Shown here piece by piece: positions 1 through 10,211 of a stretch of 10,211 nucleotides of DNA; position 1 is the stretch's first letter; every line of letters starts with the position of its first letter. A program made the position numbers and the translations under genes. The DNA comes from a virus (taxonomy: Duplodnaviria; Heunggongvirae; Uroviricota; Caudoviricetes): the IMG/VR virus record IMGVR_UViG_2531839265_000002; one strand, given 5' to 3'. The notes under the pieces are model-generated. The model worked only from the letters and a program-made list of their open reading frames with translations. It was not told the DNA's origin and searched no databases.

Positions 1-91
1 GCAGAACATGCCGGACGGTCACGGTTTGCCCGTTCTGATATGCTGCTTCAATTTCTGCAGCGCCGGACGTTGTCAGAATCAGTCCATTCAT
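1..91 (-). CDS. Tail fibre protein, N-terminal fragment (P2 gpH-like N-terminus); gene continues beyond the window start
   Basis: ATG at 91..89 overlaps the gpI-like stop (ATGA). Translation MNGLILTTSGAAEIEAAYQNGQTVTVRHVL resembles the conserved N-terminus of P2 H-type fibres (..VITTAGAAKLAAA..). Position directly after V-W-J-I matches P2 gene order. Only 30 codons are visible. Confidence 0.5.
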   Translation of the reverse strand, partial: MNGLILTTSGAAEIEAAYQNGQTVTVRHVL

Positions 92-678
92 ACACCTGCC
101 TCACTCTGCCCGCCTGTGGGCACTGTCTTTGTTGTCACACCGGTACTTCTGATTTTTTCTGTCGCCATCACATAGCCGTAACCAAATCCACGCCCTGTGC
201 TGTTCCCGTAAACGTGAATACTGAACCAGCTGCGCAGATTTTTGGCACGGAGCACCGCATGCTTCAGATCCTGATGATCATTCATAAGCACCGGTAAATC
301 TTTCTGCTCCACGTTCAGACGGAAGGTATACGGCTCCCCGGGTGGGGTCTGCTCATACCACTCAACAATCTGCGACCGGAAGGGACTGTCAGCCAGCGAT
401 GCCATCAGCGCCGCTTTAGTCCCTCTGTGGCGGTGGATGTATGCAGCACGTTTTATCGCAGACCTTTTTTCCGCCTCCGTCCAGTGTTCATTCCAGGTGT
501 CCACCGCCATTTCCCAGGCCAGCCATGGCAGCAATTCAGCAGGACATAAATCGGGATTTTTCACATAGCGGATCAGACATACTGCGATTTCCGCCAGCAT
601 ATCACCGGCGGTACTGTCCACCACCCGCTCTGCCCGGCTGGTGCTGACAGGAAGTATGCTTCTGATTTTGTCATTCAT
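88..678 (-). CDS. I: Baseplate assembly protein, P2 gpI-like
   Basis: 196-aa ORF with ATG start and a GGTGGAG Shine-Dalgarno. Motif CPAELLPWLAWEMAVDTWNEHWTEAEKR matches P2 gpI (CPANLLPWLAWAFSVDRWDEKWPEATKR) from memory. Start overlaps the gpJ-like stop. Confidence 0.8.
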   Translation of the reverse strand: MNDKIRSILPVSTSRAERVVDSTAGDMLAEIAVCLIRYVKNPDLCPAELLPWLAWEMAVDTWNEHWTEAEKRSAIKRAAYIHRHRGTKAALMASLADSPFRSQIVEWYEQTPPGEPYTFRLNVEQKDLPVLMNDHQDLKHAVLRAKNLRSWFSIHVYGNSTGRGFGYGYVMATEKIRSTGVTTKTVPTGGQSEAGV

Positions 679-1585
679 CGGTTGTCTCCACCTTGTTCAG
701 CGTTACCTTACGGCACCACGGTGCCTGCCCCATCGCAGGAACGATATCACTGCCCGGAGAGGTCAGATTCACCGTAATCACCCCGGTCTGGTGAAGGGCA
801 CCATCCATGCCAGAACGGGATGCCACCGAGCCAATCCGGTGGACGCTGTCAGTGTATGACTGCAGCGCCTTGCGGGCATTTGCCATAACCAGTTCACCAT
901 CCAGTCCGTAGGGAATATGAATATCCGCCACCACATCGTAGGGAATAATTTCTGCCGTCCGGACACTGACAAAATCCGTCAGGGGACGGGTTTCATCATC
1001 ACAGACTGATGCTGCCACCTTATCCAGCAGGGGTTGTGGTGCAGTGCCATTTCCGGAGCGGGATAACACATAAAGAAAAACCCGGCCTTCCTGCGAATGC
1101 GTTTCCGGCCCGTAAGCCTTCACATCCAGCACATCAGGATCAGCACTTTGTGCAAAATAGTGATACGCATTTTTCGCGCCAGCGGTGCTGAGTCGTGCCC
1201 ATGACAACTGGATACGTTCGCGAAAAGCATCATCATCTTCATACACCGCAGGCGTGGGCGGGATGGTGCTGTCATCTGCCGGGGTAATCACCAGACGTTG
1301 CACCTGAAAATTCGCACCAATCTGATCCAGGTCGTTCCTCCGGGCGCTGGCAAGCAGTGCCCCCCGGACAGCATCATTGACCTGCTGGCGCATCAGCGCC
1401 ACGCGAAAAGCCAGTGCCTCTGCCCATTTATACGCCGGATCGGATTCCACCAGGGCCGAAAACAACGTGTCCAGCTCCTGATACTTCGCCACTATCTGAG
1501 TGACCAGCACAGCAGTGTCCGGCACCTCCACCGCATCCGGTACCGGTATCGCGGACAGATCAATGATTGCCTGAGACGTTGCCAA
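671..1585 (-). CDS. J: Baseplate wedge protein, P2 gpJ-like
   Basis: 304 aa, close to P2 gpJ (about 302 aa). N-terminus ..AIIDLSAIPVPDAVEV.. resembles P2 J (MPIIDLNQLPAPDVVEEL). Start is TTG at 1585 preceded by a strong GAGGAG Shine-Dalgarno; overlaps the gpW-like 3' end by 26 nt. Confidence 0.8.
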   Translation of the reverse strand: MATSQAIIDLSAIPVPDAVEVPDTAVLVTQIVAKYQELDTLFSALVESDPAYKWAEALAFRVALMRQQVNDAVRGALLASARRNDLDQIGANFQVQRLVITPADDSTIPPTPAVYEDDDAFRERIQLSWARLSTAGAKNAYHYFAQSADPDVLDVKAYGPETHSQEGRVFLYVLSRSGNGTAPQPLLDKVAASVCDDETRPLTDFVSVRTAEIIPYDVVADIHIPYGLDGELVMANARKALQSYTDSVHRIGSVASRSGMDGALHQTGVITVNLTSPGSDIVPAMGQAPWCRKVTLNKVETTDE

Positions 1586-1916
1586 TTTTTATCTCCTCGA
1601 GTCGAATCGTATCCTGTGTTTCGTTATTCACCCCGACAAGCGTCAGCCAGGCGCAGCCTTCTCCGGTCCACGTCACCTCCACCCGGCGAAGGGTCAGGCG
1701 GGGTTCCCAGCGTTCGAGGGCGGTTGCCGTTTCACGGACAATCCTCACCCGTGTGAAATCATCCTGTGGGTTATCAAGCAGACTGAAAAGTCTGCTGCCG
1801 TATTCCCTGAGCAGGACCCGGCTGCCGACCGGTGTTGACAAAATATCGGTGACGGACTGGCGCAGATGTTCGTTACCGTGCAGATATCTGCCGGTGGCTG
1901 AATCAATACCAATCAT
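1560..1916 (-). CDS. W: Baseplate protein, P2 gpW-like (gpW/T4 gp25 family)
   Basis: 118 aa with ATG start. Motifs ILSTPVGSRVLLREYGS and RLTLRRVEV resemble P2 gpW (ILRTPVGSRVMRRDYGS, RVTLSSVT). Sits between the V-like and J-like genes as in P2. Confidence 0.8.
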   Translation of the reverse strand: MIGIDSATGRYLHGNEHLRQSVTDILSTPVGSRVLLREYGSRLFSLLDNPQDDFTRVRIVRETATALERWEPRLTLRRVEVTWTGEGCAWLTLVGVNNETQDTIRLEEIKIGNVSGNH

Positions 1917-1949
1917 GTTGTTTATTCCGGAAAAAGAACTGAAAGGAGA

Positions 1950-2573
1950 TTACATTTGCTGACCAGGCTGTCCGGTGCTGCCACCACTGTCGCCCCGGTG
2001 ATTGTGACCGTTATAGACAATTCTGATTTGACTCATCGTTCCGTGATAATCAGAAACCTCACCACCGACCATCAGATCCGCCTTAACCACCACCTCAGCA
2101 TTCATGGTTGCTTTACCCTGTACAGTCAGGGTATCTGTGATTTCTACCGGACCGTCCAGGGTTCCCCTGCCGGTAATTTTATAGCTGCCGCCTTCAGCCA
2201 GCGTGATGGACAGGGCATTAGCCTGACGGTCGTAACGGATTTCCGTTCCGGTATCAAACAAAATAACATGTTCGTATTCACTGCCCTCAGGGACAGGAAT
2301 GGCGTCAATATTAGCCCCCGGATACACCCGACCGTTACGCAGATCGCCCGCCTCCGATATCACTGTAACGGCATCTCCGGGAGCCGGGTAATTACTGACC
2401 TGCATGTAGCGCCCGGACTGTACCTGAATCCAGGGCAACGGAGGCGAAAGCACATCCCCGATATCCACCCGAACCATAACCGGGCTACCCGGGATCACCT
2501 CGTCCACCACGCCGCGACGGACCATGTCCGCCACCCTGCGGCGTAACTCTGCCACTTCATCTGCCAGACTCAT
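1950..2573 (-). CDS. V: Baseplate spike/assembly protein, P2 gpV-like
   Basis: The track ORF (1950..2867) is open upstream, but homology to P2 gpV begins at an internal ATG at 2573 (MSLADEVAELRRRVADMVRRG..), giving 207 aa against 211 aa for P2 V. C-terminal motif HNHRGDSGGSTGQP matches P2 V HKHPGDSGGTTGSP. Start overlaps the upstream gene by 17 nt. Confidence 0.8.
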   Translation of the reverse strand: MSLADEVAELRRRVADMVRRGVVDEVIPGSPVMVRVDIGDVLSPPLPWIQVQSGRYMQVSNYPAPGDAVTVISEAGDLRNGRVYPGANIDAIPVPEGSEYEHVILFDTGTEIRYDRQANALSITLAEGGSYKITGRGTLDGPVEITDTLTVQGKATMNAEVVVKADLMVGGEVSDYHGTMSQIRIVYNGHNHRGDSGGSTGQPGQQM

Positions 2574-3120
2574 CACCGGTGCCCTCCGATTTCCAGATAA
2601 GACGATAATCCTGCTCATGTCTCTTGCCGGTTTCCGGTACTTTACCCAGCCAGACTTCCTGTAACGGCGCACCTGCCGGAACCGCAAACGGATCTTCGCC
2701 GACCGGAATGTCCTGTTCAAAAGAGACACGGAAAACGATGTAGTCGTCCAGCAGCCGGTCGAAGGTATCCACCTCAGCATCGATAAAAACCGCCGGATCA
2801 ACGTTATCCAGCCCGAACGTGGCTCCCTCAATCCAGTCAGATAAATCCATCGCCAGACAACGGACAAAAATCTGCGGTTTTGGCACGTTTTCCGTCTTCC
2901 CGGCCCGGTCTGTCACCACAAACAGATCACATTTCAGCGTGACCCGCGTTTGCCCGTCAGCAAACTGAGCCTTGTCCCAGCCCGGTACATCCACAAACAC
3001 AGCAGGCGTCACCAGTTGCGTCACTTTTTCCGGGTACTCATCGGCATCTTCCACCCAGGGAATTTGTTTCAGACTGTCAATCACCGCCTGATGCCAGGCG
3101 CCCATCATCAATGGCTCCAT
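2557..3120 (-). CDS. Hypothetical protein; by position a candidate tail terminator or tail completion protein
   Basis: 187-aa acidic ORF, tightly coupled on both sides (TGATG overlap with the Z-like stop; 17-nt overlap with V). I do not recognise the family. It occupies the slot of lambda gpU or P2 gpR/gpS between the connector genes and the baseplate genes. Confidence 0.5.
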   Translation of the reverse strand: MEPLMMGAWHQAVIDSLKQIPWVEDADEYPEKVTQLVTPAVFVDVPGWDKAQFADGQTRVTLKCDLFVVTDRAGKTENVPKPQIFVRCLAMDLSDWIEGATFGLDNVDPAVFIDAEVDTFDRLLDDYIVFRVSFEQDIPVGEDPFAVPAGAPLQEVWLGKVPETGKRHEQDYRLIWKSEGTGDESGR

Positions 3121-3842
3121 CACTCCAGCCCCTTAAATACCCGGAATTTCAGTTCATGCTCAAAATTTTTCAGGATCAGTGCTTCCGCATCCGGAAAAAC
3201 AAAATCCTCTATACGGTTCAGCATGGCTTCATAAATATCAATTTCCGCTTCACGCACCCTCCGTCGTCCGGATGCCTGTCGGATCAGTATCGTTTTCCTT
3301 TTTGATATACGTCCGTTACGATTTTCCGCTTCGAACTGATTGATAAAGGCATCATCCGTTGACCAGGTGGTGACAGGCAGGGATTCCCCGGCAGGTTTAA
3401 AACGGATCTCCCGTGCCTTCCTCCGGTGGGAAGCTGGTGCAAAACGCCCCCGCTCATCGCGCAACTGATGGCGTTCGCCACGTCGTCCCCCACTGATGCG
3501 TCCGCGCAGATCGCGTACTTTGATGGCGTTCAGACCGAACCATACCTTCGCCTCATCAAACTCATCACCGTTACGACAAATGATAAAATTATGCAGAACA
3601 CGCTTTTTGATCATTTTCTGACTGCGTGGGGCAACCTGTTTTTTAAACTCTGCCATAGACTTCATTCGCAGTGCAGACGCGGCTCTTTTCAGCGCCACGC
3701 CCCAGGCTTTACGGATCTGACTTTTTGACCCACCCAGTTTAGCGATAATTTTCAGCACCTCATCTTCATCAATATCGACGACGAGGTTTCGTGCCAGCCG
3801 TCGCTGCCGGGCACTGCTTCGTTCATGCTCTCTGACTGCCAT
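3120..3842 (-). CDS. Z: Tail completion protein, lambda gpZ-like (arginine-rich)
   Basis: The track ORF starts at TTG 3902; the first ATG is at 3842 (MAVREHERSS..), which I take as the start. Highly basic protein with an Arg-rich central segment; its C-terminal region loosely resembles lambda gpZ, and it follows the FII-like gene as Z does in lambda. Start choice and family are both uncertain. Confidence 0.5.
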   Translation of the reverse strand: MAVREHERSSARQRRLARNLVVDIDEDEVLKIIAKLGGSKSQIRKAWGVALKRAASALRMKSMAEFKKQVAPRSQKMIKKRVLHNFIICRNGDEFDEAKVWFGLNAIKVRDLRGRISGGRRGERHQLRDERGRFAPASHRRKAREIRFKPAGESLPVTTWSTDDAFINQFEAENRNGRISKRKTILIRQASGRRRVREAEIDIYEAMLNRIEDFVFPDAEALILKNFEHELKFRVFKGLE

Positions 3843-3994
3843 AACGTTTACTCGGTCGTTCCGGTGCAGCAGGTGTATTTCTCCCCGGCTCTCCACGCGC
3901 AAGGGTGATGGTAATCACCCCCTGACCCGCAGTGCCTGACTCATCCCAGCCGGGATCGACTACCTGATAGGGTTCGCCGTGGATCATGACCCTG

Positions 3995-4228
3995 TCATAT
4001 TTTTTTCAGACCGGCGGCCCATGTGCTCCGGGTAAATAACACGGGCGCAGTATCACGAATTTCGCCGCTGCCAGTGTTCATCCCGGTGTTATCTGCCGGG
4101 GCATCAAAAACGGCACGGATTCTTCTTTCCGTGCCGCCCGGATATATGCTGATTTCCGTCCCCATCGTATCCAGGATGATGTCATCCGCATCACTCATGG
4201 CCTGATCGAACAGATTATCGAACATCAT
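3995..4228 (-). CDS. FII: Head-tail joining protein, lambda gpFII-like, N-terminal part only (frame broken at an A7 run)
   Basis: MFDNLFDQAMSDADDIILDTMGTEISI..RAVFD..PVLFTRS resembles lambda FII (MADFDNLFDAAIARADETIRGYMGT..IRGVFD..SLFVRT). The in-frame ORF stops after 77 codons just past an A7 run (T7 on plus, 4000..4006). The conserved FII C-terminus (YDRVMIHGEPYQVVD..) continues in the +1 frame down to a stop at 3825..3823. Start taken as ATG 4228 overlapping the FI stop. Confidence 0.7.
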   Translation of the reverse strand: MMFDNLFDQAMSDADDIILDTMGTEISIYPGGTERRIRAVFDAPADNTGMNTGSGEIRDTAPVLFTRSTWAAGLKKI

Positions 4229-4593
4229 CACTCCCGGATTTTTTCTGCCAGACCGTCCGCCAGCAACGCAGGAACTGCGGCTTCATTAACCAGCACAACA
4301 CTGGAGGCCCGGGCAAACATCAACATTTTTCCCGTCACAGCATCACAGGCTGGCATATGCGCCGTTTTCAGCATACGCACCCGGGCGAGTCCCCGCTCAG
4401 AATGCATTCCGTCGCCGGATGCATCGTTGCCCACCTCTTCCTTCCCTGTCTCCTCCCCATCGAATCCGGCGGCCTCCTCTTCCCATTCCGCCAGGCGCTG
4501 CTCAAGATCGGCTTTTGAACCTGAAATATCTGCTTCACGCCCCAGAATAACTGCCAGCGCCTGAAGGCGTTCCGTCATCTGCTCTTTTGTCAT
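4228..4593 (-). CDS. FI: FI-like head assembly/DNA packaging accessory protein
   Basis: ATG at 4593 preceded by GGGAGAG. N-terminus MTKEQMTERLQALAVILGREADISGSKADLEQRLAEWEEE matches lambda FI (MTKDELIARLRSLGEQLNRDVSLTGTKEELALRVAELKEEL), followed by an acidic linker. In the raw sequence this ORF is read through from the frameshifted E gene. Confidence 0.75.
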   Translation of the reverse strand: MTKEQMTERLQALAVILGREADISGSKADLEQRLAEWEEEAAGFDGEETGKEEVGNDASGDGMHSERGLARVRMLKTAHMPACDAVTGKMLMFARASSVVLVNEAAVPALLADGLAEKIRE

Positions 4594-4611
4594 CAAATCT
4601 CTCCCGTGCGC

Positions 4612-4640
4612 TAAAGAAAAAGGCGGGAATATCCCGCCCC
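4612..4640 (-). terminator. Intrinsic-terminator-like hairpin plus U-tract just downstream of the major capsid gene
   Basis: On the transcribed strand: GGCGGGA-UAU-UCCCGCC (perfect 7-bp GC-rich stem) followed by UUUUUCUUU. It lies between the homology-defined E stop (4646..4644) and the FI start (4593). Confidence 0.5.
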
Positions 4641-4643
4641 GTC

Positions 4644-5673
4644 TTATTTCACCTGAACCACCACAAACGCATCCGGATCCGGCAGCACCATCAACGGCGC
4701 AGACTGCGTCATGGTATATTCGCAACCAGGATCCCCCCACTTCCTCCCAGTGTTTCGGATAACGAATCGCAGAGGTGATCCCTTCACTCAGTGCCTGATT
4801 ATCCTGAATGGCACCATAACAACGGACGCCTTCCGCCTGAGTGTTCCCCAGAATCAGTGTACCTTCCGGCAGATAACGCTGTTCATCCCCGTTTTCGTCA
4901 ACATACGTTGTCTTCGCCACCACAATTGCCAGATCGCCGTAATAACCTTTAAAGGAAACCACGGAGCCCAGGTCTTTCAGTGCCGTTTCCAGCTCAGATT
5001 TGGAGCCACGGCGGGTATCCAGTTTTTCACGGAACAGTTTAAAACCGTTCAGCATACGCCAGACCGTGCCGTCCATAATCGCGATATTGATGGTGCCGGA
5101 AGCGAAATCGCAGTACGCATCCAGATCATGCGTCGGATCGAAGGTGTCAGCATTCTGCTGTGACCATTCGCGTCCGCCAGCCTGCGTAATGTTATTGGCG
5201 GCAGAACGCCCAAAATCCACTTCCACCGTCTCAAACTGCTCGCCGCTCATGGTGTATTTACCCTGCAGAACGGCACTGACCGCCTGCATTTCTTCCACCT
5301 GCACAATCGCCTGCTCTTCCTGTTTCAGGTTGTCTGTCAGAATACGCAGACGGCGGTAAGCCGGGTCATTAAGGCGGGCCGGATCCTCTCCCGGAAGACG
5401 TTCCACTGCCTGCTGATAATCAAAGCGGTGTTTTGGTTTTACATAACCGGGACGTAACACGCGGGTTTCACCACCACGGCTGCGCAGCACTTTGCCTGAC
5501 ACCACCGGAGACACATACGCCGCGACCGGTGTTTTGCCGGTAATTTTATCCAGCATGACTTCCTGAGTATGGAAAGTGATCGTGCGACGAAAGAACAGCT
5601 CCAGAAACAGCGCACGAAATTTCACTTTCTGCTCGGTGTACCCGAGTAACTGACGCGTGGTAAATAACCCCAT
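4644..5673 (-). CDS. E: Major capsid protein, lambda gpE-like (frame broken by one extra base in a G6 run near the 3' end)
   Basis: ATG at 5673 with AAGGA Shine-Dalgarno. Strong similarity to lambda gpE across the protein (MGLFTTRQLLGYTEQKVKFRALFLELFF.. against MSMYTTAQLLAANEQKFKFDPLFLRLFF..; KPKH, AYRR, DTRRGS, LGNTQA motifs). After ..YPKHWEEVG the gpE-like C-terminus (DPGCEYTMTQSAPLMVLPDPDAFVVVQVK) is in the +1 frame and ends at TAA 4646..4644. As sequenced the ORF instead runs on to 4228, fused to FI. Confidence 0.85.
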
Positions 5674-5696
5674 AATTTATTTTCCTTCAGAAACAC

Positions 5697-5721
5697 AAAC
5701 GGGCCGCATCGCGACCCGTTT
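5697..5721 (-). promoter_or_regulatory. Stable RNA hairpin in the D-E intergenic region (possible attenuator or mRNA-stability element)
   Basis: Transcribed strand reads AAACGGGUCGC-GAU-GCGGCCCGUUU, an 11-bp stem with one G-U wobble and a 3-nt loop. It is followed by GUGUUUCUG, which is only a weak U-tract. Located 21 nt after the D stop and 24 nt before the E start. Confidence 0.3.
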
Positions 5722-5741
5722 TTCAGTTAATCACTTCACCA

Positions 5742-6077
5742 TCAGGCGTGGCTGATGGCACTTCCCACAAATGCGTTGGCTTTTTTCACCGCATCCACAG
5801 AGTCAGGCCAGACCAGCGACTCAGTGGCAAACGTACCGCTTTTGTAGTACGTCAGCATGGACTCAGTCCCGGTAAGCGCCAGAGCCAGCACGCCCACTGC
5901 CGTTCCGGCTTTCTGACCATCCCATGCCACCAGTTTACCGGTGGCGTCATCCAGCATCAGTGGCGTCAGTGCAGGCATGGCGGCACTGATACCACTGGTG
6001 GCTTTTGCGGTATGCGCCGGATCGTTTCCGGCAAAAATGTGCACATCCGCGCGCTTTTCCGTGGTGGTTTTAATCAT
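5742..6077 (-). CDS. D: Head decoration protein, lambda gpD-like
   Basis: 111 aa against 110 aa for lambda D. Motifs NDPAHTA, TPLMLD, KLVAWDG, YYKSGTF match lambda D (SDPAHTA, TPLMLD, KLVAWDG, FYKSGTF). ATG start with AGGAGG Shine-Dalgarno. Confidence 0.9.
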   Translation of the reverse strand: MIKTTTEKRADVHIFAGNDPAHTAKATSGISAAMPALTPLMLDDATGKLVAWDGQKAGTAVGVLALALTGTESMLTYYKSGTFATESLVWPDSVDAVKKANAFVGSAISHA

Positions 6078-6115
6078 TTTTCAGCCTCCTGATTTATCTG
6101 AATTCCGGATATCGC

Positions 6116-6826
6116 TTACGGCATACTCATCAGCAGGTCTTCCTCCCCGCGCCCGGCAGTTCCGCCACCGGAAACCGCACTGGCAGCATGCTGTGCCATA
6201 AAGCGATCAAAAAGTGTTTCCTGTGACGGTTGCGATGCCGCCGGCGCGGCTGCCAGTAGCGTTTTCGCCTGCGCCACCGTCATTCCCGGTTGTTCTGTCA
6301 GTGCCTGTGCAAGTTGCTCGCGCCCTTTTGCCTCCGGCAGCGCCATAATCTGATCGCCGACACTTGCAGAACCAGCAACCGGTGCCGCCGCCAGTAACGT
6401 TTTGGCCTGGTCAACGGTCATTCCCGGCTGTTCAGCCAGCGCCTGCGCGAGTTGTTCACGCCCTTTTGCTTCCGGTAACGCCATAATCTGATCGCCTGTG
6501 CCTGCAGCACCGGCAGCAGGGGCTGCCGCCAGAAACGCTTTCGCCTGCTTCACCGTCATCCCCGGCTGACCTGCCAGCATCTGTGCCAGTTGCTCACGCC
6601 CCTTTGCTTCCGGCAGCCCCATAATCTGATCACCTGTATTTGCCACACTGGCAGCAGGCACAGCAGCCAGGAACGCTTTCGCCTGCTCTACCGTCATTCC
6701 AGGCTGACCTGCCAGCATTTGCGCCAGTTGCTCGCGCCCTTTCGCCTCCTGACAATTCAGGATCCCCATCACGCGCTGATTTTCCTGGGCCACCGCTTCA
6801 GCAACGGTGAGATTTTTAACAGTCAT
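6116..6826 (-). CDS. nu3: Nu3-like scaffolding protein, nested in-frame within the 3' part of the C-like gene
   Basis: Internal ATG at 6826..6824 preceded at ideal spacing by AAGGAG (transcribed strand CGAAGGAGAATGCAATG). Translation MTVKNLTVAEAVAQENQRVMGILNCQEAKGRE.. parallels the lambda Nu3 region (..AAVAAENSRIMGILNCEEAHGRE..). In lambda, Nu3 is an in-frame internal initiation product of the C reading frame. Confidence 0.55.
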   Translation of the reverse strand: MTVKNLTVAEAVAQENQRVMGILNCQEAKGREQLAQMLAGQPGMTVEQAKAFLAAVPAASVANTGDQIMGLPEAKGREQLAQMLAGQPGMTVKQAKAFLAAAPAAGAAGTGDQIMALPEAKGREQLAQALAEQPGMTVDQAKTLLAAAPVAGSASVGDQIMALPEAKGREQLAQALTEQPGMTVAQAKTLLAAAPAASQPSQETLFDRFMAQHAASAVSGGGTAGRGEEDLLMSMP

Positions 6827-7732
6827 TGCATTCTCCTTCGTAACAGAGTCATTCAGTGCAGAAACCATCACTTCAACGGCATCTGCAGCATTAATCAGTT
6901 GATCAGCCAGGCCTGCATCAATGCCTGCCTGACCGTCATAAACGGCAGCCTCGGTATTCATCACCGCCTCTGAACTCAGCCCCGTATAAAGCGCCACCTT
7001 ATCGGCAAACATCCGGCGGGCCTCATCAATACGGCGCTGAAAATCTGCACGCACACCTGCCGGCAATGCCTGAATACTGTTGCCGTCAACCTTGTGCTGC
7101 CCGGAGTAAATCAGCGTGATGTCCACCCCTTCCTGTGCCAGTTGTTTCTCATAACTGGTGTGCGCCATCATCACGCCAATCGAACCAATTTTTGCCGTCT
7201 GCGTGACCAGCCGACGGGTACAGGCTGCCGCCAGCAACATAGCGGCTGAACAGGCCATGTCATTACACAGCGCCCACACGGGCTTCTGTTCCCGCAGACG
7301 GTAAATCATGTCAGCACAGTCAAACGCCCCGGCAGCCTGACCGCCCGGGCTGTCGATATCCAGCAAAATGCCGCGCACATCCGGATCATTCACCGCCATC
7401 TGAAGACGAGCAGTCAGACCGTCATAGCCTGTCATGCCGGAGTAAGGCCGCAGGGTACCCAGTTTATGCACCAGCGTGCCGCTCACCGGCAGAATGGCAA
7501 TGCCATTCTTCACCTGGTAACTCTTTGCCGGACGCTGACCGCCCGCCATATAGTCAGTCACCGCCAGTTGCATACCATCAGCATCAAGCTGAACAGCCTG
7601 CTGAGGAACGGCAAGGCTGCCGGCCCCTATCTCTTTACCCAGCGCGCAAAAGAAAACCCGCGCATAGGCGGGTTCCAGTAAAAGCGGCTCATTAAATGCC
7701 ATGGCGGCAATATGCGATAAATTACGACGCAT
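6116..7732 (-). CDS. C: Capsid assembly protease, lambda gpC-like (S49/SppA-type peptidase) with in-frame scaffold region
   Basis: The track ORF is open to 7864, but homology to lambda C begins at ATG 7732 (MRRNLSHIAAMAFNEPLLLEPAYARVFFCAL against ..LRNLPHIASMAFNEPLMLEPAYARVFFCAL). Further matches: PYSGMTGY, AGAFDCAD, KPVWAL, TGSIGVMMAH, ITLIYSG.HKVDGN, TEAAVY.GQ..IDAGLAD. Overlaps the portal gene 3' end by 11 nt. About 100 aa longer than lambda C because of the C-terminal tandem repeats. Confidence 0.85.
   Translation of the reverse strand: MRRNLSHIAAMAFNEPLLLEPAYARVFFCALGKEIGAGSLAVPQQAVQLDADGMQLAVTDYMAGGQRPAKSYQVKNGIAILPVSGTLVHKLGTLRPYSGMTGYDGLTARLQMAVNDPDVRGILLDIDSPGGQAAGAFDCADMIYRLREQKPVWALCNDMACSAAMLLAAACTRRLVTQTAKIGSIGVMMAHTSYEKQLAQEGVDITLIYSGQHKVDGNSIQALPAGVRADFQRRIDEARRMFADKVALYTGLSSEAVMNTEAAVYDGQAGIDAGLADQLINAADAVEVMVSALNDSVTKENAMTVKNLTVAEAVAQENQRVMGILNCQEAKGREQLAQMLAGQPGMTVEQAKAFLAAVPAASVANTGDQIMGLPEAKGREQLAQMLAGQPGMTVKQAKAFLAAAPAAGAAGTGDQIMALPEAKGREQLAQALAEQPGMTVDQAKTLLAAAPVAGSASVGDQIMALPEAKGREQLAQALTEQPGMTVAQAKTLLAAAPAASQPSQETLFDRFMAQHAASAVSGGGTAGRGEEDLLMSMP
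6241..6769. repeat. Four tandem copies of a 138-bp (46-codon) unit, diverged, inside the C/Nu3 coding region
   Basis: Unit start codons (ATG on minus) recur at 6769, 6622 (147 bp, first unit 3 codons longer), 6484 and 6346 (138 bp spacing). The plus-strand motif ccataatctgatc(g/a)cc recurs at 6343, 6481 and 6619. Encoded units read M(A/G)LPEAKGREQLAQ(A/M)LA(E/G)QPGMTV.QAK..LAAAP......GDQI. Copies are clearly related but diverged at DNA level. Confidence 0.8.
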
Positions 7733-9293
7733 CGCCTTTTTCTCCCGTTGTCTGTCGGATCTGCTGCTGAAACGTGTCCTTAATCCAGATGGGGCGGGGA
7801 AGACCCGCTGCCTGTCGCTCCTGGCTTTCACGCAGTTGCTGACGGAAAATCTCCTGATAGTCATCGCCCATCAGAGCCAGCTCTTTCTCGTACGTGCTTA
7901 AACCACCTTCAATACGCATCACCGCTTCCTGCACTTCCTTAAGGCCATCAATCGCCATGCGACCGGCACCAATCCACTCGGCACGACACCATCCGGAACG
8001 GGCCTCCCAGAATGAAAAACGGGATTTCGGCGGGCGGATCACACCGCGAATAAGAGCTTCCTCCAGCCAGCAGGCAAACATCTGTGATGCCAGCCGGCTG
8101 GCCACAAATTTTCGTTTGCCCATAAAATACCGCCACGACTCATTGGCGGATGCCCTGGCACTGGAATAACTGACCTGTGAATAATCACGGGAAAGCTGTT
8201 CATAGGACACCCCCAGTCCGGCAGCGATGTAACGTAACAGCGCCTTTTCCAGTTCAGAGAAACCATTATCTGCATTCTGCGCTGTCTGCAGATTCAGTGA
8301 ATCCCCCGGATAAAGATGCGGAATACGGACCCCACCCAGCTTTACCGTATTGGTGGCGTAATAACGCGCGTAGCCTTTCATGATGGTGTTCAGGGGATTT
8401 TTACCGCCATCTCCCACCCCGGCGATATATTCAAATGCTTTTTCCGAATCCAGCGTGGATTCAATCGTCGCGGCATACATCGCCCGCACCACCGCCGACT
8501 GCAGTTGCGTGGCCTGCAGTGTGTCGAGCATCTTGAGACGCTCCATGACAGAATAAAACTGGTTGGCCCCGCGCGTCTGCCCGTCCTCCTGCGGCTGAAA
8601 CACATGGATCATTCCCGGTCGCCCGGAGGGCAGCGTCGCCGCAATCCGCGTCCAGTTGCTGACACCGTAACCGGGCCAGTCATCTTCCTGAACATGGTAG
8701 GCCAGTGCTTTTCCGTACCGGTTGATCTCCACCCCGGCACGCATAAAACGATCGCCGGTACCATAACCGGGTGTACTGACACGTTTCGGGCTGATGGTCT
8801 TGAATTTCGTCCGGAATAATGACGTGGATTCCGTATCCCATACGGGCTGGACAAAAATTTCACCGTTAAACGTATGAACGCCCACCCCTTCACGAATAAA
8901 TTCGGTAAACGAGCGACGCCCCTCCACATCCATCGAACCAAACACAGGATCGCAATATTCCATCCACGCCGCCTCCACATCTTCAATAAAGGCATGCGAA
9001 TCAGCTTCCGACATCCCCAGCCAGCGCCAGTTGGGCCGGTAGCTCAGGCGAAACATGTGCCCGACGATATGGTCTTTATGAATTTCCACTGCATTTGCGG
9101 CAATACCGTTGTTACGGACCAGATCATCCGCACGGGCGTTACCCAGCTGAATGGAAGGTAAGAGCGCCACGTCGGCACTTTCCGGTGCAGGCAACCATTC
9201 CGCAAGCTGCCCGCCAAATCCGGTACCCCCTCCGGAATATCCCATACTCTGCCGCAATGGCTGCCCGTGAAGATCCACCAGTTCCCTGTTCAC
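7722..9293 (-). CDS. B: Portal protein, lambda gpB-like
   Basis: 523 aa against 533 aa for lambda B. Similarity throughout (GGGTGFGGQ, LLP..GNARADDLVRNNG.AANA, FNGE.FVQ..WDT, DGQTRGAN.FYSVME.LKMLDTLQ.TQLQSA, GLGVSYEQLSR.Y.Q.SYS.ARASANESW, RMAIDGLKEVQEAVM). Start is GTG at 9293 overlapping the gpW stop (GTGA). Confidence 0.9.
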   Translation of the reverse strand: MNRELVDLHGQPLRQSMGYSGGGTGFGGQLAEWLPAPESADVALLPSIQLGNARADDLVRNNGIAANAVEIHKDHIVGHMFRLSYRPNWRWLGMSEADSHAFIEDVEAAWMEYCDPVFGSMDVEGRRSFTEFIREGVGVHTFNGEIFVQPVWDTESTSLFRTKFKTISPKRVSTPGYGTGDRFMRAGVEINRYGKALAYHVQEDDWPGYGVSNWTRIAATLPSGRPGMIHVFQPQEDGQTRGANQFYSVMERLKMLDTLQATQLQSAVVRAMYAATIESTLDSEKAFEYIAGVGDGGKNPLNTIMKGYARYYATNTVKLGGVRIPHLYPGDSLNLQTAQNADNGFSELEKALLRYIAAGLGVSYEQLSRDYSQVSYSSARASANESWRYFMGKRKFVASRLASQMFACWLEEALIRGVIRPPKSRFSFWEARSGWCRAEWIGAGRMAIDGLKEVQEAVMRIEGGLSTYEKELALMGDDYQEIFRQQLRESQERQAAGLPRPIWIKDTFQQQIRQTTGEKGDAS

Positions 9294-9499
9294 AGCCCCA
9301 CTCCTGCCGGGCCACGACGCCGTCCGGATACGCCCAGCGCACTTTCCAGCTCTTCAATATACTGGCGTAGTTCACCAATCGTCGCCCGCGAATACTGAAC
9401 CTGACGCCCGTCCTTACTGACGGAAACCACAGCACGTCCGATCATCAGTTCATGTAATGCCCGGCGGGCATCACAAAGCATTTCATGCGTATAAACCAT
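9290..9499 (-). CDS. W: Head-tail joining protein, lambda gpW-like
   Basis: 69 aa against 68 aa for lambda W. ARRALHELMIGRAVVSVSKDGR.V.YSRATIGELRQYIEELE...G..RRRGPAG resembles lambda W ([56 protein letters not shown]). ATG with GGAGG Shine-Dalgarno, 2 nt after the terminase stop. Confidence 0.85.
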   Translation of the reverse strand: MVYTHEMLCDARRALHELMIGRAVVSVSKDGRQVQYSRATIGELRQYIEELESALGVSGRRRGPAGVGL

Positions 9500-9501
9500 T
9501 T

Positions 9502-10211
9502 TTATCCTCCACTCAGTGCAGCCGCGATTTCTTCCAGACTCATCTCATCGTCGTCCTGCTCATCTCTTCTGGCACGGGCCAGTGCTTCAAGATCCAGCTG
9601 CCACCGCTGAACTGAAATACGCAGGGCAGCATAGGCATATACCAGGCAGTCGAGGGCTTCGTTGCGTCGCCCTTTTTTATCCCACAGCAGTTTTACCCTG
9701 CCATTAACCACCTTCTCCACCAGCTCTTCCGCCACGATCTGACGCGCCTCTTCTTCCGAAAAAATGTCGGGGTTATCCGGAAAACGGAAGGTATACGGGG
9801 CGGCTTCACTGGCAGAGACCACCGGCAGTGCAAAACGGGCGTACAGCATTTCCTTGACGGTATCGGAGCCCACCTCACACAAAAACACACCACGCTGGTT
9901 GCGCTTTTTGGGCATGGTGATCACCGGCTTGCCGTACACCGATGCCCCTTTTATGGGAAGCACAAAAAAAGTGCCGTGTTTCCTGGAACGCTGATACACA
10001 ATGTCCTGGTCGATACCACCGGTATCCCAGCAGACACGGGAAATGGAAATTTCAGTACCGTCAGCATGACGATATTTTTTCCGGATCACCGTATCAACAC
10101 GTTTAAGGGTGTCCTCGTCTTCCGGTCGCCCCATGATAATTTGCTTATCAATCAGAAAGGCTTCTTCGCCGGGAGCCCAGCCCCACACATAAATTTCATA
10201 GCGATCTTTCT
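9502..10211 (-). CDS. A: Terminase large subunit, lambda gpA-like, C-terminal portion (5' end beyond the window)
   Basis: The reading frame is open to the window edge and ends at TAA 9504..9502. Called from its size, its position immediately upstream of the W-B-C-D-E block, and my recollection of the lambda gpA C-terminal region; no motif was aligned residue by residue. Confidence 0.8.
   Translation of the reverse strand, partial: KDRYEIYVWGWAPGEEAFLIDKQIIMGRPEDEDTLKRVDTVIRKKYRHADGTEISISRVCWDTGGIDQDIVYQRSRKHGTFFVLPIKGASVYGKPVITMPKKRNQRGVFLCEVGSDTVKEMLYARFALPVVSASEAAPYTFRFPDNPDIFSEEEARQIVAEELVEKVVNGRVKLLWDKKGRRNEALDCLVYAYAALRISVQRWQLDLEALARARRDEQDDDEMSLEEIAAALSGG

Follow-up and report, generated by a model that had tools for sequence, protein, structure and literature searches.

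How do lambda-type head genes and P2-type baseplate genes come to adjoin in one late region, and what is the 187-aa protein encoded where they meet? An earlier note on the window, as we call the whole 10,211-nt stretch of DNA analysed here, had described positions 2557–3842 as a notable mosaic junction, at which lambda connectors would be forced to adapt to a foreign tail, and had named the 187-aa protein as the obvious candidate for an adaptor or tail terminator. On our analysis one joint reading is highly probable: the window holds the late structural genes of a lambdoid prophage of E. coli, whose particles pair a head of lambda type with a contractile tail of P2/R-pyocin type; the 187-aa protein is the terminator of that tail; and this combination of head and tail is an old one.

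Every gene of the window lies on the minus strand. The head side begins with the C-terminal part of the terminase large subunit (9502–10211; Pfam GpA_nuclease, E = 2.2e-42), whose gene continues past the window edge, followed by the gpW head-tail joining protein (9290–9499; Pfam gpW, E = 4.1e-25), a portal of the lambda B family (7722–9245; Pfam Phage_portal_2, E = 1.7e-95; 74% identity to phage 21), an S49 head protease/scaffold of lambda C/Nu3 type (6116–7732; Pfam Peptidase_S49) with a tandem repeat at 6243–6749 (3.7 copies of a 46-aa unit), and the head decoration protein D (5742–6077; Pfam HDPD, the lambda D family, E = 6.5e-23; 74% identity to phage 21). Major capsid and packaging genes E and FI, the FII-like, Z-like and 187-aa genes come next. 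On the tail side, the genes follow the P2 order V-W-J-I: a gpV-type baseplate spike (1950–2573; phrog_9992; identity 27% to P2 V and 53% to the Hafnia phage yong2 protein), a gpW/gp25 baseplate wedge protein or sheath initiator (1560–1916; Pfam GPW_gp25), the gpJ baseplate wedge protein (671–1585; Pfam Baseplate_J; E = 9.6e-56 to PA0618; 40% identity to P2 J), and the gpI baseplate/fibre-attachment protein (88–678; Pfam Tail_P2_I, E = 2e-35). These Pfam and PHROG matches, with the head-side Pfam hits exceeding the Pfam cutoffs, agree with the gene-by-gene assignments already proposed, lambda head order and then P2 V-W-J-I. Fibre, fibre-assembly, sheath and tube genes, predicted earlier to lie past coordinate 1, are present in L001, a 98.1% identical E. 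coli prophage in which sheath, tube, tape-measure, U, X and D genes follow the window equivalent. Counting the sheath and tube genes of L001, a single late region unites head genes of lambda type (terminase, gpW, portal, S49 protease, D, E) with P2-type genes for V, W, J, I, sheath and tube. Around the junction the genes are packed tightly: the FII-like and Z-like reading frames overlap by 20 nt, the Z-like stop and the ATG at 3120 overlap as TGATG, and the 187-aa and gpV-type genes overlap by 17 nt. No promoter-like site was found in the interval 1900–4700.

Two frameshifts had been missed in the earlier gene map, whose assignments otherwise stand. E and FI are read as a single 481-aa ORF (4228–5673), with Phage_cap_E over residues 5–318 and Packaging_FI over residues 362–476, through an additional C in the run of Cs at 4733; the FII-like head-closure protein (Hc1; 3823–4231) is split into ORFs of 78 and 54 aa by a single T added to a run of Ts at 4000. 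Relatives keep E (342 aa) and FI (121 aa) as separate genes and FII intact at 134 aa. The FII fragment in the window (3995–4231) scores 29.2 bits against Phage_attach (cutoff 26), compared with 49.8 bits for an intact relative, and the FII-like protein matches phrog_82, the lambda FII family, at E = 7.4e-30, with 33% identity to lambda FII and 34% to its yong2 counterpart. Taken literally, the window copy could not make heads able to join tails, given the FII and E/FI frameshifts.

These lesions, together with the membership of a headless R2 pyocin in the terminator family, could be read as signs of prophage decay, the region being a remnant without function or on its way to becoming a tailocin, with neck genes that no longer matter. 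We consider this unlikely. Both frameshifts are single extra homopolymer bases private to the window sequence, the shorter run being found in L001 and in every same-context IMG/VR relative (18 loci for the FII run, 11 for the E run). Moreover, the 481-aa fusion has been seen on a single contig, from E. coli 4_1_47FAA, while the other cluster members read include many 342-aa proteins; PGAP calls intact, separate E, FI and FII genes in the 98.1% identical best match, which also has a full lambdoid early region; and at least 80% of the window is found in 75 complete E. coli genomes. Strain ETEC1732 (NZ_CP122823, 2961396–3001541) is one carrier of an intact copy of the prophage. The E–FI fusion and FII split were rejected as real biology, being private single-base homopolymer insertions.

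The 187-aa ORF (2557–3120) is real, with RefSeq placing the start instead at 3108 to give 183 aa. Its product is acidic (pI 4.3) and matches phrog_1072 at E = 6.4e-51, residues 4–178 aligning with profile positions 3–173 of 174. With a profile built from 131 family sequences, PA0615, the collar protein of the R2 pyocin, is matched from residue 4 to residue 164 of 171 (E = 3.6e-33), C-terminal motif included. The modelled architecture consists of an N-terminal domain with the gpU-like alpha/beta fold, followed by a C-terminal arm of ~45 residues with a conserved P..G..H..DY motif, of which P158, G161 and Y168 occur in at least 90% of the 131 sequences and align with PA0615. Two Pfam models, Phage_Mu_Gp37 and Phage_tail_terminator, are touched by a few family members. 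All tail terminators have one fold in common (PMC11784142), and the canonical Type-1 neck has the gene order Hc1 (FII), Ne1 (Z), Tc1 (U) (PMC4362835); here the order is FII-like, Z-like, 187-aa gene, V. As judged by sequence, the 187-aa protein is most probably a tail terminator (Tc1) related to PA0615, the gpU fold and the PA0615 family profile match bearing out the earlier guess.

Could the 187-aa protein instead be a diverged orthologue of P2 gpR or gpS, and the entire tail half simply P2? Its position relative to V is that of R and S in P2, and the terminator role is alike: the P2 virion has gpR as its terminator (preprint 10.64898/2026.09.14.750843), the gpR family, phrog_65, is named tail terminator in PHROGs, and the shared terminator fold would extend to it. 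Against this, the protein matched no Pfam family, P2 R and P2 S included, and the PHROG families are distinct (1072 here, 65 for R and 26 for S). Probabilities from hhalign for the 187-aa profile were below 1% against both P2 proteins (gpR 0.7%, gpS 0.6%), with sensitivity limited by the single-sequence templates. In addition, gpR is reported to bind the sheath in another way than PA0615 and to be closest to siphophage terminators (preprint 10.64898/2026.09.14.750843), and L001 carries X between U and D and lacks lysis genes separating head and tail genes, unlike P2. Such an orthology is therefore very unlikely. According to the earlier note, a match to P2 R or S would have made the junction ordinary; there is no match in sequence, but the protein is homologous to the collar of the P2-like R2 pyocin and appears to fill the role that R has in P2, and the junction is ordinary in that reader's sense.

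Upstream of the terminator gene, between the Hc1 and Tc1 genes, lies the gene for a 240-aa protein (3120–3842) with a match to phrog_27 (E = 1.2e-28; profile positions 3–194 of 199), the family to which lambda gpZ also belongs (E = 3.2e-69). The protein is strongly basic (pI 10.8), with an Arg-rich region modelled at low confidence, and long N- and C-terminal helices flank a beta insert in its model, a helix / beta-insert / helix topology described for gpZ-type proteins (PMC11661146). Structural matches were weak, and a PDB sequence search with the family profile returned chance-level matches only. The Pfam Minor_tail_Z threshold was not attained, one of 20 relatives reaching E = 0.021, and hhalign of the family profile against the single lambda Z sequence, a template that limits sensitivity, was negative. 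Mainly on the one PHROG match, the 240-aa protein is probably a gpZ-type tail completion protein (Ne1), and the 240-aa and 187-aa genes would together make up the tail side of an ordinary Type-1 neck.

A plausible course of assembly can be outlined for this neck. As PA0615, Mu gp37 and lambda gpU suggest by analogy, six terminator copies would cap the finished tube via the gpU-like domain, and the C-terminal arm with its P..G..H..DY motif would clamp the last sheath ring as in PA0615. The collar protein tethers tube to sheath (PMC11329794); PMC4684702 makes no mention of PA0615 or a terminator. The arm is modelled with a pLDDT of only about 55–58, so sheath binding by it rests on PA0615 homology. 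The FII ring of a DNA-filled head would dock on the upper face of the terminator ring; where the Z-like protein sits in the particle is likewise an inference.

Where, then, do the exchanged modules begin and end? From terminase through E, protein identity to phage 21 is 61–82%, collapsing after E, and DNA similarity to phage 21 ends near 4475. FII, Z-like, terminator and V-W-J-I share 34–59% identity with yong2. A further E. coli relative, L021, retains 152–3906 (one block, Z-like through I) at 92.7% identity with a different head, of yong2/Chris1 type (71–84% identical at the protein level); its FII is 42% identical overall, with the C-terminal ~30 residues near-identical. Because FII, Z-like, terminator and V-W-J-I change together, the exchange boundaries lie in FII (~3906) and at E/FI (~4475–4640), not at the 187-aa gene. 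The same concerted change with the tail genes speaks against lambda connectors having been forced to adapt to a foreign tail. Head modules in this lineage thus appear to be swapped at or before FII, with Z-like and terminator travelling with the contractile tail.

The order FII / Z-like / terminator / V recurs in Hafnia yong2, Wolbachia phage WOcauB1, Citrobacter Chris1, Vibrio Valp1, Burkholderia vB_HM795 and E. coli vB_EcoM-569R10, which supplies the other genomes with the same junction that the earlier note had suggested looking for and spans phages of Alpha-, Beta- and Gammaproteobacteria. A lambda/P2 chimera has been known for Wolbachia phage WO (from 2000 onwards) and for Xylella prophages (PMC3235987). 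Since the terminator has the gpU fold and the position of lambda U, the neck order FII, Z, U runs unbroken into the baseplate genes. With a layout that is widespread and already published, and a neck order that is uninterrupted, the notion of a notable mosaic junction at 2557–3842 does not hold. That a lambda-like siphophage and a P2-like myophage recombined recently with a crossover in 2557–3842, making the 187-aa protein a new adaptor for lambda FII and Z, is barely credible: the phage 21-like head beside a P2-like V-W-J-I, and a protein that lacks a Pfam family and belongs to a PHROG listed as of unknown function, would suit it, but V-W-J-I is just 27–40% identical to P2 and the tail half has no DNA-level match there, comparison with yong2 places FII, Z-like and terminator with the tail genes (in L021, Z-like and terminator stay with them), the gene order is common to three proteobacterial classes, and the 187-aa family, with at least 356 clusters at 50% identity, includes a solved terminator. 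The lambda-head/P2-tail combination is, on these comparisons, probably an old and widespread lineage and not a recent lambda × P2 cross.

Two further proposals, taken jointly, are tentative: that Z-like, terminator and P2 tail form a portable cassette, and that R-type pyocins derive from the lambda-head/P2-tail lineage and not from P2 proper. In E. coli the cassette would dock onto at least two unrelated lambda-type heads with the crossover in FII; if so, FII would be a two-part adaptor, its N-terminal part head-specific and its C-terminal ~30 residues tail-specific. R-type pyocins and the lambda-head/P2-tail lineage have one terminator family in common. The PAO1 pyocin locus presumably has the U-X-D gene order of this lineage; P2 uses gpR and places gene X elsewhere.

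The results are of value chiefly for annotation: a family that had no name can be called tail terminators of the PA0615 collar type; the listed E. coli members of the terminator cluster are all labelled 'hypothetical protein'. The corrected boundary, with head exchange at or before FII, can serve both the typing of prophages and the engineering of tailocins or chimeric phages. Nothing here points to a novel type of head-tail interface, and the layout itself is not a new mosaic.

Among known systems, the R2 pyocin collar PA0615 (PDB 6u5f/6u5j) forms one sequence family with the 187-aa protein over its full length, motif included; the window J protein matches PA0618 and the L001 sheath protein matches PA0622. 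We take PA0615 to lie directly upstream of the gpV homologue PA0616 in PAO1; an alignment-based scan of genome contigs gave no confirmed relative. The R2 pyocin is headless, so that PA0615 is a free cap, whereas the prophage ring must also dock an FII-capped head; in the prophage, unlike the pyocin, a Z-like tail completion gene precedes the terminator gene. Lambda gpU (PDB 3fz2; neck order W, FII, Z, U) occupies the same gene position after FII and Z, and lambda FII and Z fall into PHROG families identical to those of their prophage counterparts. However, gpU (131 aa, phrog_37) caps a non-contractile tube and lacks a sheath-binding arm, and hhalign of the terminator family profile against the single lambda U sequence, a template that limits sensitivity, gave a probability of only 20%. 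In P2, gpR (terminator) and gpS (Ne1, tail completion) are functional equivalents encoded just before V-W-J-I (PMC4362835; preprint 10.64898/2026.09.14.750843). Sequence similarity of the prophage neck proteins to gpR/gpS was not detectable by hhalign with single-sequence templates, the 240-aa profile reaching 0.2% against the single gpS sequence, whose use limits sensitivity. P2 R and S close the O operon and V opens an operon with its own promoter, whereas the prophage frames overlap instead; P2 builds its head from genes that have no kinship with those of lambda type. The model for the Mu tail terminator (PDB 9khy; Pfam Phage_Mu_Gp37) is touched by 4 of the 131 terminator family members, the window protein itself having no Pfam match, and the Mu head and baseplate modules differ from those of the prophage. 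In WO, yong2, Chris1, Valp1, vB_HM795 and vB_EcoM-569R10, lambda-type terminase, W, portal and protease are followed (in most) by D and E, and then by FII-like, Z-like, a PA0615-type terminator and P2-type V, as in the prophage. Yong2 and Chris1, unlike the prophage, have a fused protease-capsid gene and carry sheath and tube between V and W-J-I, and the prophage head is far nearer that of lambdoid siphophage 21 (61–82% protein identity) than are the heads of the other chimeric myophages.

All genes in the window lie on the minus strand, and their map in an earlier note was correct. Pfam matches at or above curated thresholds assign the head genes: the terminase large subunit with its C-terminal GpA nuclease domain (9502–10211), gpW (9290–9499), a lambda-family portal (7722–9245), an S49 protease (6116–7732), decoration protein D (5742–6077), capsid protein E and packaging protein FI in a single ORF (4228–5673), and FII (Phage_attach; 3995–4231). 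PHROGs places the 240-aa Z-like protein (3120–3842) in phrog_27 (E = 1.2e-28) and the 187-aa protein (2557–3120) in phrog_1072 (E = 6.4e-51). On the tail side, Pfam and PHROGs assign gpV-type (1950–2573), gpW/gp25 (1560–1916), gpJ (671–1585) and gpI (88–678) genes, arranged as in P2. A prophage of E. coli ETEC1732 (L001), situated next to the trp operon at an ompW gene that is truncated, shares 98.1% identity with the window, and at least 80% of the window is present in 75 of 5,426 complete E. coli genomes. Past window coordinate 1, L001 carries fibre, fibre assembly, sheath, tube, tail assembly, tape measure, U, X and D genes, bearing out the expectation that sheath and tube would lie there; lambdoid early genes, including Q and RusA, occupy the other side. 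A second fibre gene pair is found at the prophage end (L001 8652–11224), and L001 also carries (7482–8621, 33860–35013) genes for tRNA-Gly, tRNA-Thr, a DNA methyltransferase and a TerB-family protein, besides the toxin–antitoxin genes RelBE and Hok/Gef.

The 187-aa ORF opens with an ATG that overlaps the Z-like stop (TGATG), and at its other end the ORF shares 17 nt with the V gene; its start at 3120 is favored over the RefSeq start at 3108 because homologues begin four to five residues earlier. Pfam gives no match for this acidic protein (pI 4.3), and phrog_1072 is labeled 'unknown function'. A profile of 131 family members matched PA0615, the R2 pyocin collar protein, over its full length (E = 3.6e-33), including a C-terminal P..G..H..DY motif that is near-invariant across the family. 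This match identifies the protein, at the sequence level, as a PA0615-type tail terminator, the guess of the earlier note. It is organized into a gpU-like domain (~135 residues) and an arm of ~45 residues at the C-terminus. The related collar of the diffocin holds the tube with its N-terminal domain and has a C-terminal strand joined to the last sheath subunit, tethering tube to sheath (PMC11329794). By analogy, the 187-aa terminator would tether tube and sheath in the same way, through an arm predicted at low confidence. In the protein collection, the terminator (183 aa) and the Z-like protein (240 aa) share one 90%-identity cluster (1,223 members), suggesting that in some assembly these overlapping genes are fused by read-through.

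Neither the 187-aa nor the Z-like protein is P2 R or S by sequence: no Pfam link to these proteins was found, hhalign probabilities were below 1%, and gpR and gpS belong to other PHROG families, phrog_65 ('tail terminator') and phrog_26 ('tail completion or Neck1'). According to a preprint of 2026, the terminator of the P2 virion is gpR, which is nearest to siphophage terminators and binds the sheath in a different manner from PA0615 (10.64898/2026.09.14.750843).

The Z-like protein shares phrog_27 with lambda gpZ (E = 3.2e-69, PHROGs) and is very basic (pI 10.8). Its model (pLDDT 66) shows a beta insert between long N- and C-terminal helices, together with an Arg-rich low-confidence segment. 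This predicted arrangement matches the topology of gpZ-type tail completion proteins (PMC11661146), and we infer the location of the Z-like protein in the virion.

In Type-1 necks of siphophages and myophages alike, genes are ordered adaptor, head closure (Hc1), neck (Ne1) and tail terminator (Tc1), represented in lambda by W, FII, Z and U; P2 gpS is an Ne1 protein (PMC4362835). The window matches this order exactly, with the 187-aa terminator in the U (Tc1) position; the lambda order therefore runs on through this gene, and the orphan adaptor that the earlier note had considered disappears. Siphophage and myophage terminators share one common fold (PMC11784142), so it is normal for a myophage terminator to meet a head closure of the FII type. 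The order FII-like, Z-like, PA0615-type terminator and V also follows lambda-type head genes in six other phages: Hafnia phage yong2, Wolbachia phage WOcauB1, Citrobacter phage Chris1, Vibrio phage Valp1, Burkholderia phage vB_HM795 and E. coli phage vB_EcoM-569R10. WO was recognized as a lambda/P2 chimera by Masui et al., with Xylella prophages noted as similar chimeras (PMC3235987). Given the standard neck order, its recurrence in these six phages and a module boundary that falls elsewhere, the notable mosaic junction proposed at 2557–3842 is not supported.

Protein identities fall in a clear gradient from the head to the tail side: 61–82% to lambdoid siphophage 21 for terminase to E, 38% to phage 21 for FI, 33% to lambda and 34% to yong2 for FII, 52% to yong2 and 29% to WO for the terminator, and 40–59% to yong2 and 27–40% to P2 for V, W, J and I. 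DNA similarity to phage 21 stops near 4475, and no phage record is similar at the DNA level to 1900–4470. Among 29 close IMG/VR relatives compared, the E. coli prophage L021 (IMGVR_UViG_2917403263_000003, 1–10000) keeps window 152–3906 at 92.7% nucleotide identity and nothing beyond. Its upstream genes form another head module with a fused protease–capsid gene, 71–84% identical to yong2/Chris1 and only 22–25% to the window type. The L021 Z-like and terminator proteins are 96–97% identical to their L001 counterparts. Overall identity is 42% for the L021 FII, whose last ~30 residues are near-identical, and the crossover falls within the 3′ end of this gene. As read from these alignments, this pattern indicates that the Z-like, terminator and baseplate genes are a single inherited block and that one head module replaces another at the FII 3′ end or just before it.

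Within the protease/scaffold gene, 6243–6749 holds 3.7 tandem copies of a 138-bp unit (80% matches) encoding a 46-aa repeat of the form ...LPEAKGREQLAQ.LA.QPGMTV.QAK..LAA.P.A....; split alignments in two relatives (L017 and L027) suggest that its copy number varies. Directly after the E stop and ahead of FI, a strong terminator-like hairpin (4620–4640, minus strand; 9-bp stem, 6 G–C pairs, followed by a T run) may attenuate transcription past the major capsid gene; it lies ~150 bp to the E side of the end of phage 21 similarity.

Compared with L001, an extra T in the T run at 4000 (T7, not T6) breaks FII into ORFs of 78 and 54 aa, and an extra C at 4733 (C6, not C5) creates the 481-aa E–FI fusion. 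The shorter runs are present in L001 and in all IMG/VR relatives that share the sequence context; both indels are private to the window. The fusion comes from a single contig (E. coli 4_1_47FAA, EHP62742.1), and many of the other cluster members read are 342-aa proteins; the 481-position phrog_2353 profile matches it end to end. Sequencing errors in homopolymers, or private mutations that arose very recently, are the likeliest source of the extra bases, and the frameshifts have no bearing on module biology.

Two results are of use: an unannotated terminator family gains a functional name, and the module boundary is corrected. In yong2 (L002 7955–9101) and Chris1 (L007 8986–10150), the terminator overlaps V, as in the window; there V is followed by sheath, tube, tape measure, U, X and D, with W-J-I last, so terminator–V adjacency is better conserved than V–W adjacency. 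The terminator–V pair brings together a gene for one end of the tail and a gene for the other. In L001 (11249–13009), gene X is flanked by U and D, whereas in P2 it lies between L and the holin gene; U-X-D is presumably also the order of the R2 pyocin cluster. The terminator is a further member of the known PA0615 collar-type family, and the prophage belongs to a known lineage of myophages with lambda-type heads and P2-type tails.
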